Source: Nitrosopumilaceae archaeon (GTDB lineage: Archaea; Thermoproteota; Nitrososphaeria; Nitrososphaerales; Nitrosopumilaceae). Taken from it: a stretch of 64,000 bases of DNA. Location: NCBI GenBank assembly GCA_965203465.1, contig CBDBCR010000001.1, positions 96,001 to 160,000 on the forward strand, written 5' to 3'. The notes below the pieces were generated by a model. It was given only the letters and a program-made list of their open reading frames with translations. It ran no database searches and was not told the DNA's origin. The translations under genes and the position numbers were made by a program. Positions 33,227-56,135 of this stretch are shown piece by piece. How positions within the stretch are numbered: the first letter of the stretch is position 1; every line of letters begins with the position of its first letter.

Positions 33227-33510
33227 TCCCGCCCGGACTGGTCACGAAGCGGCGCGTTTTGGCGTCGGCGTACATAGCGGCGATGGTCGTGATGCTCTCC
33301 GGGACTTTCGCGCCGGCCGCGCGCGACACGCCCTGGGGTCCGGCCCTCGCCGGCGTGGGCATTCTGGCGCTGGCGGCCGCGGGCATGGCGGTCGTGTTTT
33401 TTGGGTTGCGAAGCGGCCGCCTTTGGGTCTCGGTAGTGTCGGCGGCCGCGGGCGTGGCGCTGGTCGCCAGGGCGGCGTGGCTCGTGTTGTACTTTGGGTA
33501 TCTATCCTAG
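33223..33510 (+). CDS. Small three-TM membrane protein
   Basis: Three hydrophobic segments; fills the gap between ths and glnA. Confidence 0.55.
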   Translation: MIPPGLVTKRRVLASAYIAAMVVMLSGTFAPAARDTPWGPALAGVGILALAAAGMAVVFFGLRSGRLWVSVVSAAAGVALVARAAWLVLYFGYLS

Positions 33511-34964
33511 ACGTCAAAGTACAGGTAGAACTCGTGCGGGTGCGGCCTGACGGCTATCTCGCGGTGCTCTTTCCTTTCTATGGATATGAGCGTGTCTATC
33601 ACGTCGTCCGTGAATATGGGCAGCAGGAACTTGCGGTCGCTTTCCAGCTCGTCGAGCGCCTCGCCTAGGTTGGCCGGCAGCACCCCGATGCCGCGCTTTT
33701 TACGCTCGGCCTTTGTCATCTTGAAAATGTCCTCCTTTACCTGGTCGCCCGGGTCGGTCTTTTTCTTGACGCCGTCCAGGCCGGCGGCGAGCACCGCCGA
33801 GAACACCAGGTACGGGTTGGCGGACGGGTCCGGGGCGCGGAACTCTAGCCTCTTGAGGTGCGCGTAGCCGGCCCCCTTGAAGTGCTTGGGGACGCGCACG
33901 ATGGCGGACCTGTTGCTCGCGCTCCAGGCGATGTACACGGGCGCCTCGTAGCCGGGCACCAGCCTGTGGTACGAATTCGTGGTGGGGTTGGATATGGCAG
34001 AGAGCGCCCTCGCGTGGGATATTATCCCGCCGCAAAAGTACCTGCCCGTCTGGCTCAGCTCGTCCTCGGCGTCGGCGTCGTAGAACGCGTTCTCCTTGTT
34101 CTTCCAGAGGCTCACGTTGGTGTGCATCCCCGAGCCCGAATCCATCGATATGGGCTTTGGCATCATGGTCGCTATCTTGCCGTACTTTTGGGCTATGTTG
34201 CGTATGACGAACTTGTACGACTGCGTAGAGTCGGCCGAGTTGGTGAGCTTGTCGTACATGATGTCTATCTCGCACTGCCCGGCGGTGGCCACCTCGTGGT
34301 GGTGGTTGTCGCACAGTATCCCAAAGTCCTCCGTCAGCACGTTGACGCACTCGTTGCGGAACGGCGTGAGCGTGTCCGACGGCGTGCTCGGATAGTACCC
34401 CTCCTGCAGGCCCATGGGGTACCCGCGCCCCTCGTCGCTCCACGGGGCCTCCGCGGACTTTATGCTGTACGACTGCCCCTTGTACGGGGTCAGCACGTCC
34501 CAGTGGACCTCGTCAAAGACGAAAAACTCCACCTCGGGCCCCCAGTTGCTGTCGAAGCCCTGCGTCTTTAGGTACTTTTCGGCCTTTTGCGAGATGCCGC
34601 GCGGATCCCGGCCGAGCCTCCCCCTGCCCTGGCCCCAGTGCACGTCGCAGATGAGCCGCGCCGTCTTGTTGTCCTCGTACCAGGGTATCTTTGCGTACGT
34701 GTTGGGGTCCGGCTTTAGTATCAGGTCCGAATCGTCTATGCTGGTAAAGCCGACTATGGACGAGCCGTCGAGTTTGGGCAGGCCGTCGGCCATCTGCCCG
34801 CGGGTGAACGTGGCGGCCTGGATGGTGGTGTGGTGGTACCTCCCGGTCAGGCTGGTGAACTGCAGGTCTACGAACTTTATCCCGTCGTGCTGGATCATGG
34901 AAAAGACCTCGTCGGGCGAGTACGTTATGGCCTTTGGCTTGCCGTGGCTTATCTTGTATGGCAA
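33507..34964 (-). CDS. glnA: Glutamine synthetase type I (probably housekeeping copy)
   Basis: DGSSI, GPEVEFF, HHEVATAGQCE, SGSGMH, RLVPGYEAP, NRSA, EFRAPD; TTG start at 34964. Confidence 0.95.
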   Translation of the reverse strand: MPYKISHGKPKAITYSPDEVFSMIQHDGIKFVDLQFTSLTGRYHHTTIQAATFTRGQMADGLPKLDGSSIVGFTSIDDSDLILKPDPNTYAKIPWYEDNKTARLICDVHWGQGRGRLGRDPRGISQKAEKYLKTQGFDSNWGPEVEFFVFDEVHWDVLTPYKGQSYSIKSAEAPWSDEGRGYPMGLQEGYYPSTPSDTLTPFRNECVNVLTEDFGILCDNHHHEVATAGQCEIDIMYDKLTNSADSTQSYKFVIRNIAQKYGKIATMMPKPISMDSGSGMHTNVSLWKNKENAFYDADAEDELSQTGRYFCGGIISHARALSAISNPTTNSYHRLVPGYEAPVYIAWSASNRSAIVRVPKHFKGAGYAHLKRLEFRAPDPSANPYLVFSAVLAAGLDGVKKKTDPGDQVKEDIFKMTKAERKKRGIGVLPANLGEALDELESDRKFLLPIFTDDVIDTLISIERKEHREIAVRPHPHEFYLYFDV

Positions 34965-48654: not shown

Positions 48655-49317
48655 GTGGACTTGGACGGACTGGCCCGCGCCGTGGCGCGGTGCAAAAAGT
48701 GCCCGCGGCTGTACGGGTACACGCGCGAGGTGGCGCGCGCCCGCGTGCGCCGGCACGCGCACGAAAAGTACTGGGGCCGGCCGGTGCCCGGGTTCGGGGA
48801 TCCGCGCGCCCGGCTGCTGGTAGTCGGCCTCGCGCCCGCGGCGCACGGGGCCAACAGGACGGGGCGCATGTTCACCGGCGACGGCTCTGGGGACTGGCTG
48901 GCGCGCGCCCTGCACGGGGCCGGCTTTGCCTCCCTGCCTACAAGCACCCACGCCGGCGACGGCCTGGAGCTGCGCGGCGCGTACGTGACGGCCGCGGTGC
49001 GCTGCGCCCCGCCGCAGAACCGGCCGTCGCCCTCCGAATTCGCCGCCTGCCTCCCGTACCTAGAGGCCGAGCTGGGCCTGCTCGCCAAAGTGAACACCAT
49101 AGTCTGCTTGGGCCACGCCGCCCACGCGGCGGTCTGCAAGATCCTCAAAACAAAGAGGCGCGACATGCCGTTCTCGCACGGGGCCGTCCACCGCGCCGGC
49201 CCCTATCGCGTAGTCTGTTCGTACCATCCGAGCAGGCAGAACACGCAGACCGGCAAGCTCACCTGGGGGCAGTGGGAGCGGGTCTTTGCGCGCGCCAAAA
49301 AACTGTCGGCGCGCTAG
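48655..49317 (+). CDS. Uracil-DNA glycosylase family 5 (UdgB-like, Fe-S)
   Basis: CKKCPRL, GLAPAAHGANRTGRMFTGD, RCAPPQNRP, YHPS. Confidence 0.9.
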   Translation: MDLDGLARAVARCKKCPRLYGYTREVARARVRRHAHEKYWGRPVPGFGDPRARLLVVGLAPAAHGANRTGRMFTGDGSGDWLARALHGAGFASLPTSTHAGDGLELRGAYVTAAVRCAPPQNRPSPSEFAACLPYLEAELGLLAKVNTIVCLGHAAHAAVCKILKTKRRDMPFSHGAVHRAGPYRVVCSYHPSRQNTQTGKLTWGQWERVFARAKKLSAR

Positions 49318-50165
49318 GCCAGCAGGGCCTCTGCTATGGGCCCCGAGACGTCGACTGTCCCCGAGACGGTATTGGACGATATTATATCGGATACGCCCGC
49401 GCGCCTTAGCCTCTGGGCCGCGCCGCCTACGAGCAGCGCGTGTGTGCAGGCTGCCACCATGCGGCCGGCCCCCTGCTTTTTGAGCAGGCGCGCGGCGCCC
49501 TCTATGCTGCCGCCCGTGCCGATGATGTCGTCGACGATGACTACGTCCCTGCCGGACACCCCCGCGTCGCGCCCCGACGTCGTCGTCCTGCCAGTCCTTC
49601 TGTCGCGCTTTTTTTCCAGCGCCGCGCAGTCGGCGCCCATCAGCCTCGCCAGCGCGCCTGCCCTGCCTGCCCCGCCCGCGTCGGGCGATACGACCACCGG
49701 CCTTTCCAGCTTTGTTCTGCGCAGCCGGGCGGCCAAGGCGGGCGCGGCAGAGACATCGGTCGCGCGCCTGCCCAGGTGCCGCAGGGCCTCCCTGCTGTGT
49801 ATGTCGACGGTCACTATCCTGGAGGCGCCCAGCGCCGAGAGCGCCTTGGAGACGGCCCCGATCGTGACAGCCTCGCCTGGCAAAAACTCCCTGTCCTGCC
49901 TCGCGTACCCCGCGTAGGGTATGACCGCCGTCACCGGGCCCCGGCCGCGCGCGGCGTGCACCGTGGCGAATATCTCCATCCAGTTCGAATCGACCGGCGG
50001 CGAGGCCGACTTTACCACCGCCGAGGGGCCCTTCCAGTCTGGCAGCGTCACCTTGCGCTCGCCGTCGGAAAACACCCGCACGCGCGAGGCCGCGCAGCGC
50101 GCGCCCAGCCGCCCGGCTATCCTCCTTGCCAGCGGCCCGGCCCCGCTGCCCGAGACTACGATCAT
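49314..50165 (-). CDS. prs: Ribose-phosphate pyrophosphokinase
   Basis: FSDGE, PYAGYARQD, VSPDAGG, VDDIIGTGGS. Confidence 0.93.
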   Translation of the reverse strand: MIVVSGSGAGPLARRIAGRLGARCAASRVRVFSDGERKVTLPDWKGPSAVVKSASPPVDSNWMEIFATVHAARGRGPVTAVIPYAGYARQDREFLPGEAVTIGAVSKALSALGASRIVTVDIHSREALRHLGRRATDVSAAPALAARLRRTKLERPVVVSPDAGGAGRAGALARLMGADCAALEKKRDRRTGRTTTSGRDAGVSGRDVVIVDDIIGTGGSIEGAARLLKKQGAGRMVAACTHALLVGGAAQRLRRAGVSDIISSNTVSGTVDVSGPIAEALLA

Positions 50166-51919
50166 TCGTCGTCGCCGCCCCGCACGATGTCGCCCACCCC
50201 GTACTCTTTGACTATGGATCTGCGCCGCGCGTCCAGCGACGCTATCTCCTCGGCCTCCCTCTTTTCGTCGCCGTCGTACACGGTCCGTATGGGCCAGGGT
50301 ATCCTGATGTCGTTCTTTTTGAACTCTTCGTGTATGAACATCATCATGTCCGTCTTTGTCTTGTACTGCGAGCCGTAGTCGCGCACGTACACCCAGAGCA
50401 TAAAGTCGAGCGAGGAATCGTTGAACTTCGTGAACCGGACCACGGGCTGCTCTATCTCGCTCACGTGCACGTCCTTGTCGCAGCCGCAGCTGGGCCTGTT
50501 CTGCTTCCTGTACGGGCAGGTCATGTGCCTGACCAGGTGCCCGCCGGAGGGGTCGACGACCTCCTCCATGGCCCTCTTGCCCACCTTGATCAGTATGGCG
50601 GCCACCTGCCGCGGGTCGTTGAGGTACGAGACGCCCACCTCGACGACGGCCGGCACCATCCTGATCTCCTTGGAATAGTTTATGATCTGCGCGTTTATCA
50701 GCTGCCGGGTGGGTATGATGGCGACCGACTCGTTGAGCGCGTGGCGCAGGTACGTGACCCTCGAGGTGATCTTGTGCACGTACCCGTTGTAGCCGGTGTC
50801 CAGCTTTACGCGGTCGCCCTCGACGTATATCTTGTCCTTGCGCACCAGTATGTACGCGAAATAGTTCTGCAGCGTCTCCTGCAGGGCGAACCCCACGCCT
50901 ATGCCCAGGCCGCCGACTGCCGTGGCCAGCACGAACAGATCCACGCCCCACCAGCCCACCACGCCGAGCAGCACGGCGGCGAACATGCCGACGGGCAGTA
51001 TGCTCGTGAACGACTTGGGGAGGTTCTTGCGCTTGCGCCTGGCGTTGCCAGGCGGGCGCGCGCCCGGCTCTATGCGGCCAAAGCCGCCCATCCTCTTTTC
51101 TTCCCTCCAGATGTCTATTGGGTATATCTCCTCGGGGTCGCGCGCCGTGCGCAGCACCCTGCCTGCCCCGTTGTTGCCCGAGACGCACGACTCGAAATAC
51201 GAGCGGTACTTTGACCTCTCGCTCTCTTTCCACTCCTCGAACGGGCGCTTTGATATGTCCTCATAGCTGCCCACGGAGGCCCCGTTGCGCGTCCTGTACG
51301 ATTCGAGGCGCCTCCTTCCCCCCTCCGTCCCCACCAGCTCCTTGAACTCGGCTTCGTCCATCCCGTCGGGGGGGCCGGCAGGCGGCACCCACCTGAAGAG
51401 CTTGTGGAACATGTCGCCCTCGTCGTCCTCAAAGCCCATCATGGAGCGCCACTGCTCGTAGTCCTGCTTTTCCAGCTCGGACTTTTCGCGTTTTGTCAGT
51501 ATTATGGGCACCAAGCGGGCCACCGTGTACCCTATGACCAGCACGTCCATGGTGTTGAGCAGCTTTACGAACGTCTCCTGCGCCGTGAGCTGTCCGCCCA
51601 TCTCGGCGAGCCTCTCTGCCTCCTCGTCGAAGAGCTCGAAGGTCTGTATGTACGCGTTGACCGACGATATGAGCGCGACGCCGAAGACGGGCAGCACCGC
51701 GACTTGGACGAACTTTGACAGGTGCGGCCTGTGGTAGTAGAACTTTTTGCCGCGTATCCAGCCGGAGAGCTTGCGGTAGCCCATGGCTATGCCAACTATG
51801 CCGACCACCAGCACCACCATGGCCGCCTGCAGCGACTGCGACGAGGCGAGCAGCTGCGAGAGCGTGTCAAAGTGGCCCGCGTTTCCGGCTACCGCGCTTG
51901 CCACGTCGTGCCCGGACAT
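50162..51919 (-). CDS. mscS: MscS-family mechanosensitive channel with long N-terminal region
   Basis: GGLGIGVGFALQETLQNYFA, GDRV, IIPTRQLINAQIINYS, VGVSY, FNDSSLDF, IRIPWP. Confidence 0.9.
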   Translation of the reverse strand: MSGHDVASAVAGNAGHFDTLSQLLASSQSLQAAMVVLVVGIVGIAMGYRKLSGWIRGKKFYYHRPHLSKFVQVAVLPVFGVALISSVNAYIQTFELFDEEAERLAEMGGQLTAQETFVKLLNTMDVLVIGYTVARLVPIILTKREKSELEKQDYEQWRSMMGFEDDEGDMFHKLFRWVPPAGPPDGMDEAEFKELVGTEGGRRRLESYRTRNGASVGSYEDISKRPFEEWKESERSKYRSYFESCVSGNNGAGRVLRTARDPEEIYPIDIWREEKRMGGFGRIEPGARPPGNARRKRKNLPKSFTSILPVGMFAAVLLGVVGWWGVDLFVLATAVGGLGIGVGFALQETLQNYFAYILVRKDKIYVEGDRVKLDTGYNGYVHKITSRVTYLRHALNESVAIIPTRQLINAQIINYSKEIRMVPAVVEVGVSYLNDPRQVAAILIKVGKRAMEEVVDPSGGHLVRHMTCPYRKQNRPSCGCDKDVHVSEIEQPVVRFTKFNDSSLDFMLWVYVRDYGSQYKTKTDMMMFIHEEFKKNDIRIPWPIRTVYDGDEKREAEEIASLDARRRSIVKEYGVGDIVRGGDDE

Positions 51920-51984
51920 TTCCGGCCCCCGCCCCCGCACCCTTTAATAAGAGTAGAACCCGATCCGGCGCGTTGGCCCAGGAG

Positions 51985-53328
51985 ATGGCGTGGAAGGAGC
52001 CGCGCATATCGTCGTACACGCTGGCAAACTACCGCAAGCTGCCCCAGATCTCGCAGATGAGCGAGGAGCGCCAGTTCGAGATGGAGGTGGTCGGCAACGT
52101 GCTGCCCTTCAAGGCCAACAACTACGTGGTGGAGCAGCTGATAGACTGGTCAAAGGTGCCCGACGATCCCATCTACGTGCTCACCTTCCCGCAGCGCGGC
52201 ATGCTCGTGCCCCGCCACTACCAGGAGATGGAGGAGGCCCTCAAGAGGGGCGCGGACCGCAAGGAGATAGCCGAGGTGGCCAACCGGATACGGCTGCAGC
52301 TCAACCCGCACCCGGCCGGCCAGATGGAGATGAACGTGCCGTCCCTTTCGGACGGCACGAAACTGTACGGCATGCAGCACAAGTACAAGGAGACGTGCCT
52401 GTTCTTCCCCAGCCAGAGCCAGACGTGCCACGCGTACTGCAGCTTTTGCTTCCGCTGGCCGCAGTTCGTCGGCATGGACGAGATGAAGTTCGCCATGAAA
52501 GAGAGCGAGTCGCTGGTAAGGTACGTGCGCGAGCACCCCGAGATAAGCGACGTGCTGTTCACCGGCGGCGACCCGATGGTAATGAAGGCGCGCATGTTCG
52601 GCACGTACGTAGACGCGCTGCTCGACGCCGACATACCGCACCTGCGCACCATCCGAATAGGCACCAAGGCCCTGGCGTACTGGCCGTACAAGTTTCTGAC
52701 GGACGACGACGCGCAGGAGATGCTCGACATCTTCGCGCGCGTGGCAGCAAAGGGCAAGCACCTTGCCATCATGGCGCATTTCAACCACTTGGTGGAGCTT
52801 TCGACCGGGGCGGTCCGCGAGGCCATGGCCAAGATAAGGATGACCGGCGCGCAGATACGCACCCAGTCGCCGCTGCTGGCGCACATCAACGACGATGCGG
52901 ACATGTGGGCCGAGATGTGGCGCGAGCAGGTCCGGCTCGGCTGCATACCCTACTACATGTTCGCCGTGCGGGACACCGGCGCGCAGCACTACTTCGGCGT
53001 GCCCTTGGCGCGGGCCTACGACATTTTCCGGCGGGCCTACCGGCAGACCAGCGGCCTGTCGAGGACGGTGCGGGGCCCGAGCATGTCGGCTGCCCCCGGC
53101 AAGGTGCTGGTGGACGGGACCCCGACCATATCGGGCAAGAAGGTGCTGTCGCTGAGGTTCCTGCAGGGGCGCAACCCCGAGTGGGTCAACAAGCCCTTTT
53201 ACGCCGAATACGACGAGAACGCGGTCTGGCTGGACGAGCTGAGGCCGGCGTTCGGGGAAAAATTCTTCTTTCAGGACGAGATGGAGAGCAGGTACGGGCA
53301 GGCAGGCACGCTGCGGACGAAAAATTGA
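51985..53328 (+). CDS. KamA-family radical SAM aminomutase
   Basis: HKYKET, CHAYCSFCFR (CxxxCxxC), LFTGGDP, IRIGTK, HFNH, QSPLL, PYYMF, APGK. Confidence 0.9.
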   Translation: MAWKEPRISSYTLANYRKLPQISQMSEERQFEMEVVGNVLPFKANNYVVEQLIDWSKVPDDPIYVLTFPQRGMLVPRHYQEMEEALKRGADRKEIAEVANRIRLQLNPHPAGQMEMNVPSLSDGTKLYGMQHKYKETCLFFPSQSQTCHAYCSFCFRWPQFVGMDEMKFAMKESESLVRYVREHPEISDVLFTGGDPMVMKARMFGTYVDALLDADIPHLRTIRIGTKALAYWPYKFLTDDDAQEMLDIFARVAAKGKHLAIMAHFNHLVELSTGAVREAMAKIRMTGAQIRTQSPLLAHINDDADMWAEMWREQVRLGCIPYYMFAVRDTGAQHYFGVPLARAYDIFRRAYRQTSGLSRTVRGPSMSAAPGKVLVDGTPTISGKKVLSLRFLQGRNPEWVNKPFYAEYDENAVWLDELRPAFGEKFFFQDEMESRYGQAGTLRTKN

Positions 53329-53370
53329 CAAAAGCGCAAATACAGCTGACAAGCGGGGTTTAGTAGTGCT

Positions 53371-54831
53371 ATGCCGAATACGGGCATGGACGCCGGCGCG
53401 GTGCTAAAGGCCATAGAGGATCAGGGGATCACGTTTCTGGACTTTTGGTTCGTCGACGTGTTCGGCGAGCTCCACCGCATGGGCATGCCCAGCTACGCCG
53501 TGGACGAGGGCAGCTTTGAGAACGGGCTGGAAAAGCTGGACGGCTCGTCCATCACCGGCTTCAAGTCGGTCAACAAGTCGGACATGATACTAAAGCCGGA
53601 CCCGGACACGTTCCGGCGGCTGCCCTCCGACTACGACGACGGGCGGCGCGCCAACGCCCGCATAATATGCGACCTGTACGAGGGCAACACGACGGAAAAG
53701 TCGCGCTACAACCGGGATTCGCGCGGCATCGCGCACAAGGCCGCGCGCAAGCTAGACGATCTGGGGTTCACGAAGACCAACTGGGGCCCCGAGATCGAGT
53801 TCTTCGTCTTTGACAACATCAACGTGTACCCGTCGCCGTACGCGGCCACGCACTCGGGCGGCGGCTCCGGGTACTCGATAGAATCCACGGAATCGCCGTG
53901 GGCGCAGGGCAACATCAGCACAGCCATAAACTTCAAGCAGGGGTACTATCCGTCGCAGCCAAAGGACACGCTCGAGACTTTCCGCAAGGACATATGCGAC
54001 GACCTGTACACGTACTTTGGCATAAAGATAGAGGCCGAGCACCACGAGGTGGCCACCTCGGGGCAGTGCGAGATCAACCTGGTGTACGACGAGATGCTGT
54101 CGATGGCCGACAACGTGGTGACCGTCAAGAACATGGTAAAGGTCAAGGCCAAGCGGCGCAGCAAGGTGGCCACGTTCATGCCAAAGCCCATCTTCGGCGA
54201 CAACGCCTCGGCCATGCACGTGCACCAGAGCCTGTGGAAGGACGGGGCCAACGCCATGTACGATCCGGGCGACGACGTGGCTCAGCTGAGCCAGGACGGG
54301 CGGTACTACGTGGGCGGGATACTCGACCACGCATCGGCGCTGTGCGCCATATCCAACCCGACGACCAACTCGTACAAGCGGCTGGTGCCCGGCTTCGAGG
54401 CGCCGGTCAACATGTGCTGGGGCATCGGCAACAGGTCCGCGGCGGTGCGCGTGCCCATGTACTACCGCAACCAGGAAAAGAGCAAGCGGATAGAGTACAG
54501 GGTGCCCGACCCGACGGCCAACATCTATTTGCTCGAGGCGGCCCTGCTGCTGGCAGGCCTGGACGGGATACGGCGCAAGCTGGATCCGGGAGATCCGGTC
54601 GAGGAGAACATATACCAGCTCTCCGACGCCAAAAAGCGCGAGTACAACATCGGCTCGCTACCCGTCTCGCTAAAGGGCTCGCTCGACGCGCTGGGAAGCG
54701 ACAACTCGTTCCTATCGGACGTGTTCACGTCCGACTTTCTGGACACGTACGTCTCGCTAAAGCTGAAGGAATACGTGGCCTTTGCGCAGACCCCCACCGC
54801 CTGGGAGGTCTCGATGTACACCGACTCGTGA
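53371..54831 (+). CDS. Second glutamine synthetase-family ligase (GlnA2)
   Basis: DGSSI, GPEIEFF, HHEVATSGQCE, DNASAMH, RLVPGFEAP, NRSA, EYRVPD. Confidence 0.92.
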   Translation: MPNTGMDAGAVLKAIEDQGITFLDFWFVDVFGELHRMGMPSYAVDEGSFENGLEKLDGSSITGFKSVNKSDMILKPDPDTFRRLPSDYDDGRRANARIICDLYEGNTTEKSRYNRDSRGIAHKAARKLDDLGFTKTNWGPEIEFFVFDNINVYPSPYAATHSGGGSGYSIESTESPWAQGNISTAINFKQGYYPSQPKDTLETFRKDICDDLYTYFGIKIEAEHHEVATSGQCEINLVYDEMLSMADNVVTVKNMVKVKAKRRSKVATFMPKPIFGDNASAMHVHQSLWKDGANAMYDPGDDVAQLSQDGRYYVGGILDHASALCAISNPTTNSYKRLVPGFEAPVNMCWGIGNRSAAVRVPMYYRNQEKSKRIEYRVPDPTANIYLLEAALLLAGLDGIRRKLDPGDPVEENIYQLSDAKKREYNIGSLPVSLKGSLDALGSDNSFLSDVFTSDFLDTYVSLKLKEYVAFAQTPTAWEVSMYTDS

Positions 54832-54860: not shown

Positions 54861-55435
54861 ATGCAGATCACGACTGAGCCGTCCTGCGATGATTGCAAGG
54901 CCAAACTGTTCGCATCTCTGATTGCCGCTGCAGTGCTCGTATTCGCCGCGATGGCCTTTGTGGCGACGGGAGACCGAAATCCAAAAGACAAAACGCTGGA
55001 AAAAGCTCAAGAAAAGCAAGAGCGCGATCTGGTTTCGCAAAAGATGACGCAGCTTGTAGTCGAAGCGCAGGAATTGACGGAAAGGCTCCAGTCTGAAAAC
55101 AGCCAAAGTGAGAAACAGAGAATCGGCGCAAGGCTAGACGAGATACGGGGCGAGCTGGACAAAATCGAGAGCGACAACCGCGTAAAAGACGTACCGCAAG
55201 CGCAGCTCGACGAGCTACTCGGCAACAGGTGGCTTTTGGGGAAAGATTGATGCAGTCCGACGCCGTGAAATTTGTCGTGGCCATAGGAATAGATCTCTCC
55301 GGCAGGGAAATCCAAGTTGTGCTGAACGAGAGTCTCGTAGGCTCGCACAACATTGATTCAATAATCAACGATCTGCAAAAAATGATGCCTGCCAATGCAA
55401 ACTGGCACGTTGTCTTGTCCGGCGGCCCTCCGTAA
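54861..55435 (+). pseudogene. Lower-GC membrane-anchored coiled-coil gene, probably frameshifted near 55220
   Basis: Two overlapping ORFs (54861-55250 and 55229-55435) with atypical codon usage that read as one continuous protein after a frame change. Confidence 0.45.
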
Positions 55436-55514
55436 GCACACACAGTTCCAGAGATCAGATTCGCGCGGGGCCGGCCGACCAAGGTTTTTAACGTCGGCGC
55501 CGCGAGCGCGCCCC

Positions 55515-56135
55515 ATGCTGCTTGCGGCACTCGCTGCGGTTCTGCTGATGCTGCCCGCGGTTGCGCTGGCCCACCAGCTCGACACGGTCGGCGAGTACCG
55601 CGTCCAGATAGGCTGGCAGTACGAGCCGGCCATATCGGGCGAGCCCAACGCCATACAGCTGTGGGTCAGCCCGTTCGACCCGTCGACGCCCGTAGAAGAG
55701 CAGCCGTTCCGGGACGGGATCACGGGGCTGCGCAAGGATCTAAAGATAGAGCTGGTGCTGGGCGAGCAAAAGGTCACCCTGCCTATTTCGGTGGACCACG
55801 ACGTTCCCGGAAAATACTACGCGCTGGTCAGCCCGACCGAGCCGGGCTACTACCAGGTCAACATACTGGGCAAGGTCGGCGAGACCGTCTTCAACAAGGC
55901 GCTGCACGCCCCAAAGGTGGAAAACAGCGAGTTCATCCGGTTCCCCGCACCCGGGGATCCGGCCGGTGCCCAGCTGGACCGCCTGGGCGCGGACTTGGCG
56001 CGGCTGGAGGCCTCCGTCTCCGGCCTGGAACAGCGGGTCTCGGCGGCGCCCGGCCCAGAGACCGGATACGCGGCGCTGGGCCTGGCCGCGGCCGCCGCGG
56101 CGGTTTCGGGCGTGGCGCTGGCGCGGCGCCGCTAG
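55515..56135 (+). CDS. Secreted protein with C-terminal anchor
   Basis: Signal peptide ending ALA-H, IGWQYEP, GKYYA...PTEPGYY, coiled coil, TM segment + RRR. Confidence 0.8.
   Translation: MLLAALAAVLLMLPAVALAHQLDTVGEYRVQIGWQYEPAISGEPNAIQLWVSPFDPSTPVEEQPFRDGITGLRKDLKIELVLGEQKVTLPISVDHDVPGKYYALVSPTEPGYYQVNILGKVGETVFNKALHAPKVENSEFIRFPAPGDPAGAQLDRLGADLARLEASVSGLEQRVSAAPGPETGYAALGLAAAAAAVSGVALARRR

Follow-up and report, generated by a model that had tools for sequence, protein, structure and literature searches.

A probable beta-glutamate osmolyte locus linking a KamA-family aminomutase to an MscS-type channel in Nitrosopumilaceae

Widderich et al. reportedly described in 2016 an osmolyte cluster of Nitrosopumilus maritimus in which ectABCD is joined to mscS. 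A clostridial glutamate 2,3-aminomutase (TIGR04368) was reportedly described by Ruzicka and Frey in 2007, and it presumably carries a lysine at the position of the first lysine-binding aspartate of lysine 2,3-aminomutase (LAM). Oxygen inactivates enzymes of the LAM type, and it counts against the reading given below that the archaeal host is an aerobe. For the beta-amino-acid starter of incednine, the enzymes named are IdnL3 (a PLP decarboxylase), IdnL4 (a radical-SAM enzyme) and IdnL1 (PMC11284099). IdnL4 is held to convert glutamate to beta-glutamate, and an IdnL4 knock-out no longer forms the 3-aminobutyrate unit derived from it. For IdnL3, decarboxylation of beta-glutamate has been demonstrated; for IdnL4, activity was never observed in vitro (PMC11284099). 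[quoted passage not shown] In methanogens, NMR labelling is reported to have excluded an aminomutase route (PMC1224877), so that beta-glutamate can be made another way. Two glutamine synthetases (GS) also serve as precedents: that of Methanohalophilus portucalensis amidates beta-glutamate to beta-glutamine (PMC1224877), and Halobacillus halophilus is described as having a salt- and chloride-dependent GlnA2 for osmoadaptation and a GlnA1 for nitrogen metabolism (PMC2412884). The portions of the literature consulted on these GS precedents do not report beta-glutamine in ammonia-oxidising archaea.

The window analysed here is a stretch of 64,000 nucleotides from a Nitrosopumilaceae genome; its source organism is a sponge-associated, ammonia-oxidising archaeon. 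On the minus strand lies mscS, diverging across 65 bp from a KamA-family radical-SAM gene on the plus strand, which is followed after 42 bp by a second GS gene (GS2) on the same strand. This arrangement, given in the initial annotation, is exact in the sequence, and the other glnA, which had been placed at 33.5-35.0 kb, was found there (Table 1). We read the locus as a probable beta-glutamate osmolyte module of aminomutase and MscS with GS2 as an accessory, at a probability of about 0.6. The radical-SAM, PLP-dependent 2,3-aminomutase would shift the amino group of L-glutamate to C3, and beta-glutamate would build up to become the principal anionic compatible solute in Nitrosopumilaceae. The long MscS, divergent from the common short spacer, would be an emergency valve that releases solutes on osmotic downshift. 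GS2, in about 70% of carriers, would be an accessory third member, most likely acting on the solute pool or co-regulated with it; the most specific, still unproven, proposal is that it amidates beta-glutamate to the zwitterion beta-glutamine. Of the dedicated synthesis-and-release module first suggested, the step from glutamate to beta-glutamate and the link to the channel are retained; the beta-glutamine step and the dedicated nature of the channel are so far unsupported, and the role as an alternative to ectoine is rejected.

Table 1. Positions of the module genes, their spacers and the comparator GS1 in the window
Feature	Coordinates	Strand	Basis	Details
mscS, MscS-family mechanosensitive channel, 585 aa	50162..51919	-	PF00924 and PF21082	stop 50162-50164; probable ATG at 51919
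Divergent intergenic spacer, 65 bp	51920..51984	.	sequence reading	
KamA-family radical-SAM, PLP-type aminomutase, 447 aa	51985..53328	+	profile scores, alignments, tree, structure model	ATG 51985; stop 53326-53328; CxxxCxxC present
Spacer, 42 bp	53329..53370	.	sequence reading	
GS2, second type-I glutamine synthetase, 486 aa	53371..54831	+	TIGR00653	
GS1, housekeeping glnA, comparator outside the module	33507..34964	-	45.6% identical to GS2	TTG start

The aminomutase gene is the single place in the genome with a KamA-family gene. The structure model of its product (pLDDT 93.8) has 2A5H as its best PDB fold match (TM 0.62-0.68, E 1.7e-20), the matches behind it reaching E values of about 1e-6 only. 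The CxxxCxxC motif occupies codons 148-155 (52426-52449); Arg157 corresponds to LAM Arg134, the carboxylate-binding arginine following the Fe-S cluster motif, and Lys373 (53101-53103) to the PLP lysine, LAM Lys337. At the two positions that bind the epsilon-amino group of lysine, Arg329 (52969-52971) replaces LAM Asp293 and Ser366 (53080-53082) replaces LAM Asp330. Aspartate stands at both positions in all six aligned reference proteins (four AblA passing the TIGR03820 cut-off, plus two related KamA proteins from archaea). Across a 60-sequence ingroup, Arg fills the first position in 40 sequences and Asp in one; the second carries Ser in 20, Val in 27 and never Asp. Because both lysine-binding aspartates are replaced, the enzyme does not appear to be of the lysine type and is very unlikely to act on lysine; the cationic Arg329 suits the distal carboxylate of a substrate. 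The profile scores are 114 bits for TIGR03820 (AblA, cut-off 525), 92 bits for TIGR04368 (cut-off 650) and 133.5 bits for the general KamA model (cut-off 199.2), every curated KamA-subfamily cut-off lying far above the score of this protein, which counts against the proposed function. An AblB-type acetyltransferase, noted at the outset as not adjacent, is without a TIGR03827 match anywhere in the 96.9%-complete genome (control positive in 6/14 genomes). The aminomutase is 73-79% identical across Nitrosopumilaceae despite a G+C content of about 63% at this region (0.57-0.71 in the window) versus 38-46% in the homologous spacer region of same-genus relatives, which argues for strong purifying selection.

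In the phylogenetic tree, the branch splitting the ingroup from AblA, related archaeal KamA and E. coli EpmB has an SH-aLRT of 100, placing the aminomutase in a clade of its own. The ingroup includes full-length homologues on bacterial plasmids (47-54% identity). One of these, from Streptomyces (about 50% identity across some 90% of the length), lies inside a type-I PKS (macrolactam) cluster next to a proline-iminopeptidase-like hydrolase, a class I/II PLP enzyme and an AMP-binding enzyme, a layout that we take to match the beta-amino-acid starter set of macrolactam clusters. It should be mentioned that IdnL4 was compared via this homologue in the same kind of cluster and not by its own sequence. 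In the nearest outgroup clade, a same-strand class I/II PLP enzyme adjoins the gene in 20/41 metagenome loci, with other flanks varied, and shares 30% identity (E 1e-58) with the PLP enzyme that takes the IdnL3 position in the Streptomyces cluster. A close IdnL3 homologue was not found in the archaeal genome (best match 31% identity, E 3e-20), so beta-glutamate would be the end product.

These comparisons also bear on the idea that the substrate is not glutamate (e.g. another acidic amino acid, such as aspartate or 2-aminoadipate, or an amino acid in bound or modified form) and that beta-glutamate comes from another route, which we regard as rather improbable. The Arg-Asp-Thr-Gly motif is common to the Streptomyces homologue, in whose cluster the pathway would run via beta-glutamate, and the enzyme that recurs next to the gene in the outgroup clade has as a relative a PLP enzyme that uses beta-glutamate. 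In addition, a product at 730 mM, a figure that belongs to N. maritimus and not to the source organism of the window, must have a gene behind it, and searches of the genome gave no other candidate route; 2-hydroxyglutaryl-CoA dehydratase, needed in the proposed methanogen route, was not found there either (control positive in M. jannaschii). Another substrate would, however, fit with the size and heterogeneity of the family around the enzyme, which comprises 330 representative clusters at E<=1e-30 and includes a subclade of 14 with variable substrate positions; one family member, P0128, is fused to a lysine/ornithine N-monooxygenase. It would also fit with the making of beta-glutamate without an aminomutase in methanogens, as reported in PMC1224877, and with the fact that no clade member is known to have been active in vitro, as is stated for IdnL4 (PMC11284099). 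The conversion of glutamate to beta-glutamate therefore has good, though indirect, support from the residues, the IdnL4-like clade and the N. maritimus pool. The aminomutase very plausibly catalyzes it, and is the best candidate for the enzyme that makes the main small solute of these abundant ocean archaea.

The MscS protein passes the cut-offs of PF00924 (30.8 bits) and PF21082 (35.7 bits) and has an N-terminal extension of about 340 residues without a Pfam match. Orthologues of this long form occur in 153/223 other Nitrosopumilaceae genomes (51-69% identity) and in 0/177 genomes outside the family at E<=1e-60. From 80 related loci examined, mscS is divergent from and adjacent to the aminomutase gene in 63 of the 71 whose upstream flank reaches 1.9 kb or more, and GS2 is adjacent on the same strand in 48 of the 71 whose downstream flank reaches 1.6 kb or more, so that the three-gene arrangement recurs beyond chance. 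Gene clusters to the left of mscS are nearly as conserved (62, 54 and 49 of 81 loci), which makes adjacency alone weak evidence, and the synteny may be inherited rather than selected.

The aminomutase is found in 173/224 family genomes; it accompanies GS2 in 125 of the 127 genomes with GS2 and the long MscS in 152 of 154 (both again out of 224). The exceptions, G305 and G319, are both 91% complete, and with these set aside neither GS2 nor the long MscS occurs in the 49 aminomutase-less family genomes; a search of 177 genomes from other families found orthologues of none of the three genes. In one genus, the identical 7/16 genomes hold all three. Such co-occurrence is inflated, because single deletions remove adjacent genes together.

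There could be no module at all, only an inherited gene order in which MscS is a general channel, GS2 an ordinary nitrogen-assimilating GS, and the aminomutase possibly still a maker of beta-glutamate. We consider this unlikely while giving it real weight. A whole-genome PF00924 search found MscS-family genes in this one place only, so that the channel is not established as dedicated; the initial view of a release channel holds for its link to the aminomutase, by shared gene order and shared genome occurrence. Among the 173 aminomutase carriers, 48 are without GS2 and 21 without the long MscS, 14 of the latter in one genus. The near-equal synteny to the left of mscS, the canonical catalytic residues of GS2 and its passing of the GlnA equivalog cut-off, and the longer spacers of same-genus relatives, described below, point the same way. 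On the other side stand the nesting of GS2 and the long MscS within aminomutase genomes, and at least nine genomes that keep both genes although over 100 kb of one contig separates GS2 from the aminomutase gene. Furthermore, GOGAT was not found in the genome (control positive 14/14), which has one GDH; this leaves no GS-GOGAT assimilation cycle for a second GS to serve.

A probable module would also be consistent with some shared regulation. The 65-bp spacer holds one AT-rich box only, TTTAATAA at 51943-51950, and its distance to the start codon is about 38 nt on the aminomutase side and about 27 nt on the mscS side. TTTAATAA is a possible shared, bidirectional archaeal TATA element. A ACATTTAACAAGG-like box is conserved upstream of the aminomutase gene in three same-genus relatives, but their spacers are longer (roughly 190-330 bp, estimated from protein-match ends) and carry a separate AT-rich element near mscS. 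The 42-bp spacer contains no oligo-T terminator (no T-run of >=5) and has a GGGG(T) stretch 10-14 nt ahead of the GS2 ATG; co-transcription of the aminomutase gene and GS2 is plausible.

GS2 scores 513 bits against TIGR00653 (cut-off 429) and has orthologues in 126/223 other Nitrosopumilaceae genomes and in 0/177 genomes outside the family at E<=1e-190. At the same threshold, all 18 family genomes searched (18/18) have GS1, and so do 5/12 genomes from other families of the order, at 58-63% identity. A comparison of 50 GS2 with 24 GS1 sequences found that GS2 retains all catalytic, metal, ammonium-site and phosphate residues, with G265A, G267A and Y326F (E. coli numbering) fixed. The loop with G265 and G267 presumably contacts the substrate amino group. 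These two Gly-to-Ala changes, the nesting within aminomutase genomes and the lack of GOGAT are the only hints of an altered GS2 substrate. The earlier suggestion of beta-glutamine or a glutamylated beta-amino acid as the product is unsupported so far, the catalytic residues being canonical and GS2 absent from more than a quarter of aminomutase carriers. GS2 could instead be an osmotically controlled maker of alpha-glutamine as solute or nitrogen reserve. This appears improbable given its company with the aminomutase in nearly every genome, its downstream slot, where related bacteria have the IdnL3-related PLP enzyme, and the occurrence of G265A and G267A, in the presumed substrate-contact loop, in 50/50 sequences. 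An alpha-glutamine role would nevertheless agree with the canonical active site and with the precedent, reported for H. halophilus GlnA2, of a second GS for osmoadaptation (PMC2412884).

The idea that the module is an alternative to ectoine is not supported, since ectoine genes are uncommon and accompany the aminomutase. True ectoine synthase was found in only 10/151 family genomes, with none in this genome or its genus (0/4), and the ectoine-synthase genomes of known aminomutase status all carry the aminomutase (6/6). No ect genes were recognisable beside paralogous long MscS genes in four Nitrosopumilus genomes (ORF starts, by eye only).

The locus resembles the ectABCD-mscS cluster of N. 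maritimus in that a solute-synthesis gene and the gene for a mechanosensitive channel are physically linked, both cases lying within one archaeal family, but the solute and chemistry differ, as does the frequency of the marker genes (ectoine synthase 10/151, aminomutase 173/224). With the GS of M. portucalensis and GlnA2 of H. halophilus it may share a GS in osmolyte metabolism, GS2 being a complete type-I enzyme that adjoins a presumed beta-glutamate gene; the M. portucalensis enzyme is that organism's general GS, whereas GS2 is a separate, putatively dedicated paralogue. KamA/AblA enzymes (C. subterminale LAM, 2A5H) share the fold, 2A5H being the only strong PDB match, and the CxxxCxxC motif, carboxylate-binding Arg and PLP Lys are all kept; the AblA-AblB pathway to N-epsilon-acetyl-beta-lysine in methanogens likewise yields a beta-amino-acid solute via an aminomutase. 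In contrast, the archaeal enzyme is 19% identical, has Arg329 and Ser366 in place of both Asp, and no AblB accompanies it in the genome. The clostridial glutamate 2,3-aminomutase shares the proposed reaction and a cationic residue for the first Asp (Arg329 in the archaeal enzyme), but it is a separate lineage (92 bits versus 650; no TIGR04368 member above cut-off across 301 genomes of the phylum), and glutamate specificity, if the function is right, would therefore have arisen independently. Closest is the IdnL4-type enzyme of incednine biosynthesis in Streptomyces, which falls in the same clade, set apart from the lysine enzymes at SH-aLRT 100, and shares, through the Streptomyces homologue, the Arg-Asp-Thr-Gly motif where LAM has Asp293, as well as the PLP-lysine motif. 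The archaeal genome differs in having no IdnL3-like decarboxylase, PKS or adenylation partner, which points to a solute and not a polyketide starter as the fate of the product.

The three-gene arrangement put forward in the initial annotation, in which a long MscS-family channel gene diverges from a KamA-family radical-SAM gene (the aminomutase) that is followed by a second type-I glutamine synthetase (GS2), was confirmed at all coordinates in the sequence, with the genes lying exactly where claimed. The G+C content of the window is 57-71% in 2-kb windows and ~63% over the three-gene locus. Because of this high G+C content, long spurious ORFs on the opposite strand overlap real genes between 45000 and 60000, for example at 49314-51233 (-) across the 3' part of mscS, so that simple longest-ORF calling masks mscS. 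Around the mscS-aminomutase spacer (51880-52030) the G+C content is 64% vs 38-46% in three same-genus genomes (L132-L134), and the same-genus proteins are still 68-79% identical despite this gap, indicating a large base-composition shift inside one genus-level group. A 246-aa ORF with sequence resembling a signal peptide and membrane anchor comes after GS2 in the window; its counterpart is found after GS2, or after the aminomutase where GS2 is missing, at 48 of 81 loci. Near-identical DNA is present in sponge metagenome runs (0.72-0.91 of sampled words in four runs of one study and 0.47 in one run of another) and in a marine metagenome run (0.91 of sampled words). The sponge matches fit a sponge-associated member of the Nitrosopumilaceae as the source.

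Positions of the locus genes, their spacers and the housekeeping glutamine synthetase in the window
Feature	Position	Strand	Basis or remark
mscS, MscS-family channel (long MscS), 585 aa	50162-51919	-	ORF and Pfam
Spacer mscS/aminomutase, 65 bp
AT-rich box TTTAATAA	51943-51950
Aminomutase, KamA-family radical-SAM, 447 aa	51985-53328	+	ORF and CxxxCxxC
Spacer aminomutase/GS2, 42 bp
GS2, type-I glutamine synthetase, 486 aa	53371-54831	+	ORF and TIGR00653
246-aa ORF	55395-56135	+
GS1, housekeeping glnA	33507-34964	-	45.6% identity to GS2

The aminomutase has the Fe-S/SAM motif CxxxCxxC as CHAYCSFC (residues 148-155), with the three cysteines invariant in 43/43 aligned sequences. In the alignment, Lys373 corresponds to Lys337 of the C. 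subterminale lysine 2,3-aminomutase (LAM), the PLP-binding lysine, and Arg157 corresponds to LAM Arg134, the carboxylate-binding arginine. Among the ingroup rows of the family tree the PLP lysine is found in 52/60 and the carboxylate arginine in 57/60, and both are present in 6/6 lysine-type rows. LAM Asp293 and Asp330, the pair binding the epsilon-ammonium of lysine, are replaced by Arg329 and Ser366 in the window enzyme; in each of the six lysine-type archaeal references, both positions hold Asp. References were four archaeal AblA genes that exceed the cut-off of TIGR03820, another two relatives of the lysine type, and EpmB from E. coli; EpmB entered the tree only, so that the residue comparison covers the six archaeal rows.

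The enzyme scored below the cut-offs of the general KamA model TIGR00238 (133.5 bits vs 199.2), of TIGR03820 for AblA (114.4 vs 525.4), of TIGR03821 for EpmB (99.4 vs 369.3), of the NCBIfam arginine 2,3-aminomutase (95 vs 600) and of TIGR04368 for the clostridial glutamate 2,3-aminomutase (92.4 vs 650). Because its TIGR00238 score is below the cut-off, the window enzyme is, judged by NCBI's rule, a divergent sister group of KamA and not a member. No TIGR04368-type glutamate 2,3-aminomutase above the cut-off was found in 301 genomes of the phylum or in 14 control genomes, and the nearest representative clusters and the protein atlas offer generic labels only, such as 'KamA family' and 'lysine 2,3-aminomutase'. 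The sole solved relative is LAM (PDB 2A5H, sequence match E 2e-19). This structure is also the top fold match (E 1.7e-20, TM 0.62-0.68; next ones at E ~1e-6) of an AlphaFold2 model with a pLDDT of 93.8, and the window enzyme is thus predicted to have a LAM-like fold.

The family is large and mostly bacterial: it comprises 3828 representative clusters at E<=0.001, of which 330 remain at E<=1e-30. For a tree of 67 rows, representatives of 390-540 aa were kept and 10 rows without an intact CxxxCxxC were removed; the clostridial glutamate 2,3-aminomutase is not among the rows. In this phylogeny against KamA/AblA and EpmB, the 60-row ingroup containing the window enzyme lies outside the lysine enzymes, from which it is separated with an SH-aLRT value of 100. 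The Nitrosopumilaceae aminomutases form a single clade (support 100), the branching within the ingroup being poorly resolved. The ingroup has plasmid-borne genes with 47-54% identity to the window enzyme over nearly full length; the gene context on a Mycetohabitans plasmid was uninformative. Pfam searches of eight longer family members revealed one lysine/ornithine N-monooxygenase fusion and one 2Fe-2S ferredoxin domain, and no fusions to a glutamine synthetase or a channel. The monooxygenase fusion is a natural protein of 882 aa (P0128) in which residues 8-336 form the L-lysine 6-/L-ornithine 5-monooxygenase domain and residues 455-870 a KamA-like domain of this family (48% identity), a combination suggesting that the family is also used for natural products or siderophores.

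The same 60-row clade includes a Streptomyces homologue with 50% identity to the window enzyme over 90% of the length. It is encoded inside a type-I PKS cluster with a proline-iminopeptidase-like hydrolase, a class I/II PLP enzyme and an AMP-binding enzyme as neighbours, a layout that matches the starter-unit set of macrolactam clusters. [quoted passage not shown] A class I/II PLP enzyme also adjoins an Amycolatopsis homologue, among CoA-transferase, lyase and dehydratase genes. The nearest outgroup clade is represented by 41 metagenome loci; at 20 of them a same-strand class I/II PLP enzyme is directly adjacent, with flanks otherwise varied, and this enzyme is related to the Streptomyces PLP enzyme at 30% identity (E 1e-58). 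Neither the channel gene nor GS2 is found in these 41 loci. The recurrent partner of the aminomutase family is therefore, by homology, a relative of a beta-glutamate-using enzyme, and it lends independent support to beta-glutamate as the product. The outgroup loci (L135-L163, L165-L168, L173, L178, L196-L201) come from activated-sludge, microbial-mat and other metagenomes; they form a sister clade of the aminomutase (55-66% identity), and at two loci a GNAT acetyltransferase lies downstream in the PLP enzyme's stead.

Nitrosopumilaceae rank with the most abundant ocean microbes. Heal et al. 2021 (PMC8269262) report beta-glutamate as the dominant small molecule in N. maritimus, at 730 mM, and describe its rise with depth in seawater particles; the finding is restated in passing in a second paper. 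No published gene for the beta-glutamate of Nitrosopumilus or other ammonia-oxidising archaea was found in the full-text literature outside subscription journals. The window gene is the only KamA-family place in its genome. For methanogens, PMC1224877 describes labelling that excluded a 2,3-aminomutase route to beta-glutamate and proposes a route that requires hydroxyglutaryl-CoA dehydratase, an enzyme that was not found in the window's genome. We estimate a probability of roughly 0.6 that the aminomutase converts glutamate to beta-glutamate. This conversion, the first step of the pathway proposed in the initial annotation, is well but indirectly supported by the residues, the clade, the PLP-partner pattern and the reported metabolite.

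The best 80 loci in the genome collection are all titled Nitrosopumilaceae or unresolved thaumarchaeotes. Where at least 1.9 kb of upstream flank is available (71 loci), mscS is divergent and adjacent at 63, elsewhere in the locus at 5 and absent at 3; where at least 1.6 kb of downstream flank is available (also 71 loci), GS2 is adjacent on the same strand at 48, non-adjacent at 1 and absent at 22. The genes further left are conserved almost equally, and more weight is therefore placed on the presence of each gene per genome.

Gene presence was counted across one fixed set of 401 genomes from the class (224 Nitrosopumilaceae including the window's, and 177 from other families), in which three unpublished genomes (G230, G282, G326) are counted, none being the sole basis of any claim. 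The aminomutase is found in 173/224 Nitrosopumilaceae, with only two weak matches (E 1e-13 and 1e-19) in the other families. GS2 (127/224) and long MscS (154/224) are both found in 0/177 genomes of other families. The aminomutase is also present in 125/127 GS2 carriers and 152/154 long-MscS carriers, the sole exceptions in both tallies being the same two assemblies, which are 91% complete; in these counts related genomes are non-independent, and a single deletion can remove neighbouring genes together. All three genes occur together in 115 genomes; within one genus (16 genomes), all three are carried by the same 7. GS2 is kept in at least nine genomes though it lies >100 kb from the aminomutase on the same contig. 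Against a strict module count the 48 aminomutase carriers that lack GS2 and the 21 that lack long MscS, 14 of the latter belonging to a single genus.

Long MscS contains the MscS beta-domain (PF00924, 30.8 vs 20.2) and C-terminal domain (PF21082, 35.7 vs 21), and scores far below the cut-offs of all NCBIfam MscS/MscK equivalogs; no second MscS-family gene was found in the genome. The link of long MscS to the aminomutase is plausible. The 65-bp spacer has one AT-rich box, TTTAATAA, at a position that suits a short-leader aminomutase transcript and a near-leaderless mscS transcript, and in same-genus relatives, which have longer spacers, a similar box is kept ahead of the aminomutase. We infer that the box may be a promoter shared by the two genes. 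Some Nitrosopumilus genomes (four of them at L126-L129) have one or two extra long-MscS paralogues with 51-54% identity at other loci. In four Nitrosopumilus regions viewed for a possible place of these paralogues in ectoine clusters, no ect-like ORFs were recognisable by eye from the ORF starts. At L129, an ORF two genes downstream resembles, by eye, a sodium:neurotransmitter-symporter-type transporter.

Ectoine synthase was not found in the window's genome or its genus (0/4). True EctC occurs in 10/151 genomes of the family, and the aminomutase is present in 6/6 of those with known status. The suggestion that the locus serves as an alternative to ectoine does not agree with these counts. Since EctC is rare and co-occurs with the aminomutase, the candidate beta-glutamate route is the usual one, with ectoine as an occasional supplement to it.

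GS2 scores 513.3 bits on TIGR00653 (cut-off 429.15), 395 bits on PF00120 and 82 bits on PF03951. Fourteen positions, in a numbering verified on E. coli GlnA (D50, S53, E129, E131, Y179, E212, E220, H269, R321, E327, R339, R344, E357 and R359), are identical in 50/50 GS2 and 24/24 GS1 sequences; these are the metal, glutamate, ammonium and phosphate or catalytic residues. As all 14 are intact, the nucleophile of GS2 is most likely ammonia. Near the substrate, the Asn264 loop carries the fixed GS2-specific changes G265A and G267A, and a further such change, Y326F, adjoins the Glu327 flap; these are suggestive of a changed substrate, no more. Compared with PDB structures, both GS1 and GS2 are ordinary type-I enzymes, GS2 being slightly more divergent. 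GS1 is present in 18/18 genomes of the family and reaches other families at 58-63% identity; GS2 is, from its distribution, a paralogue specific to Nitrosopumilaceae. In-frame stops in six GS2 matches were considered as signs of pseudogenes. This was rejected, as each match exceeds the open frame in length and the alignment seems to run a few residues beyond the start codon, so that the stops look like alignment overrun.

The window's genome has two type-I glutamine synthetases and one GDH, and GOGAT was not found in it (control 14/14 genomes). A GS-GOGAT cycle is thus not open to the second glutamine synthetase, and this speaks mildly for a special role of GS2. Precedents are the beta-glutamine-making glutamine synthetase of M. 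portucalensis (PMC1224877) and the salt-induced GlnA2 of Halobacillus (PMC2412884). The formation of beta-glutamine by GS2, the second step proposed initially, is conceivable but less likely than not.

A wider proposal, which we hold only tentatively and would not expect to prove correct as a whole, is that GS2 is a dedicated beta-glutamate:ammonia ligase which, with a co-transcribed release valve and a glutamate 2,3-aminomutase that evolved independently, would supply a switchable beta-amino-acid solute pair. The pair would consist of anionic beta-glutamate and zwitterionic, nitrogen-rich beta-glutamine in marine ammonia-oxidising archaea. To our knowledge, such an osmolyte and nitrogen-buffer system has no description in any aerobe. 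If true, it would be a source of deep-ocean beta-glutamate. The locus supplies one specific candidate enzyme for beta-glutamate, together with a co-travelling channel and an accessory ligase.

If the assignment of the aminomutase is true, glutamate 2,3-aminomutase would have arisen a second time, independently, and the IdnL4-type enzymes of antibiotic pathways would have a first physiological counterpart. The gene could then mark, in metagenomes, the production of osmolytes by archaea and the carbon and nitrogen tied up in them. A difference from the IdnL4 systems lies in the neighbouring genes. A class I/II PLP enzyme adjoins in those systems, in the position of IdnL3, whereas an IdnL3-like PLP enzyme was not found beside the window gene and gave only weak matches genome-wide (31% identity, E 3e-20). 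The likeness is in the enzyme itself, as the window aminomutase groups with the homologue from the macrolactam-type cluster in an IdnL4-like clade, apart from the lysine enzymes.
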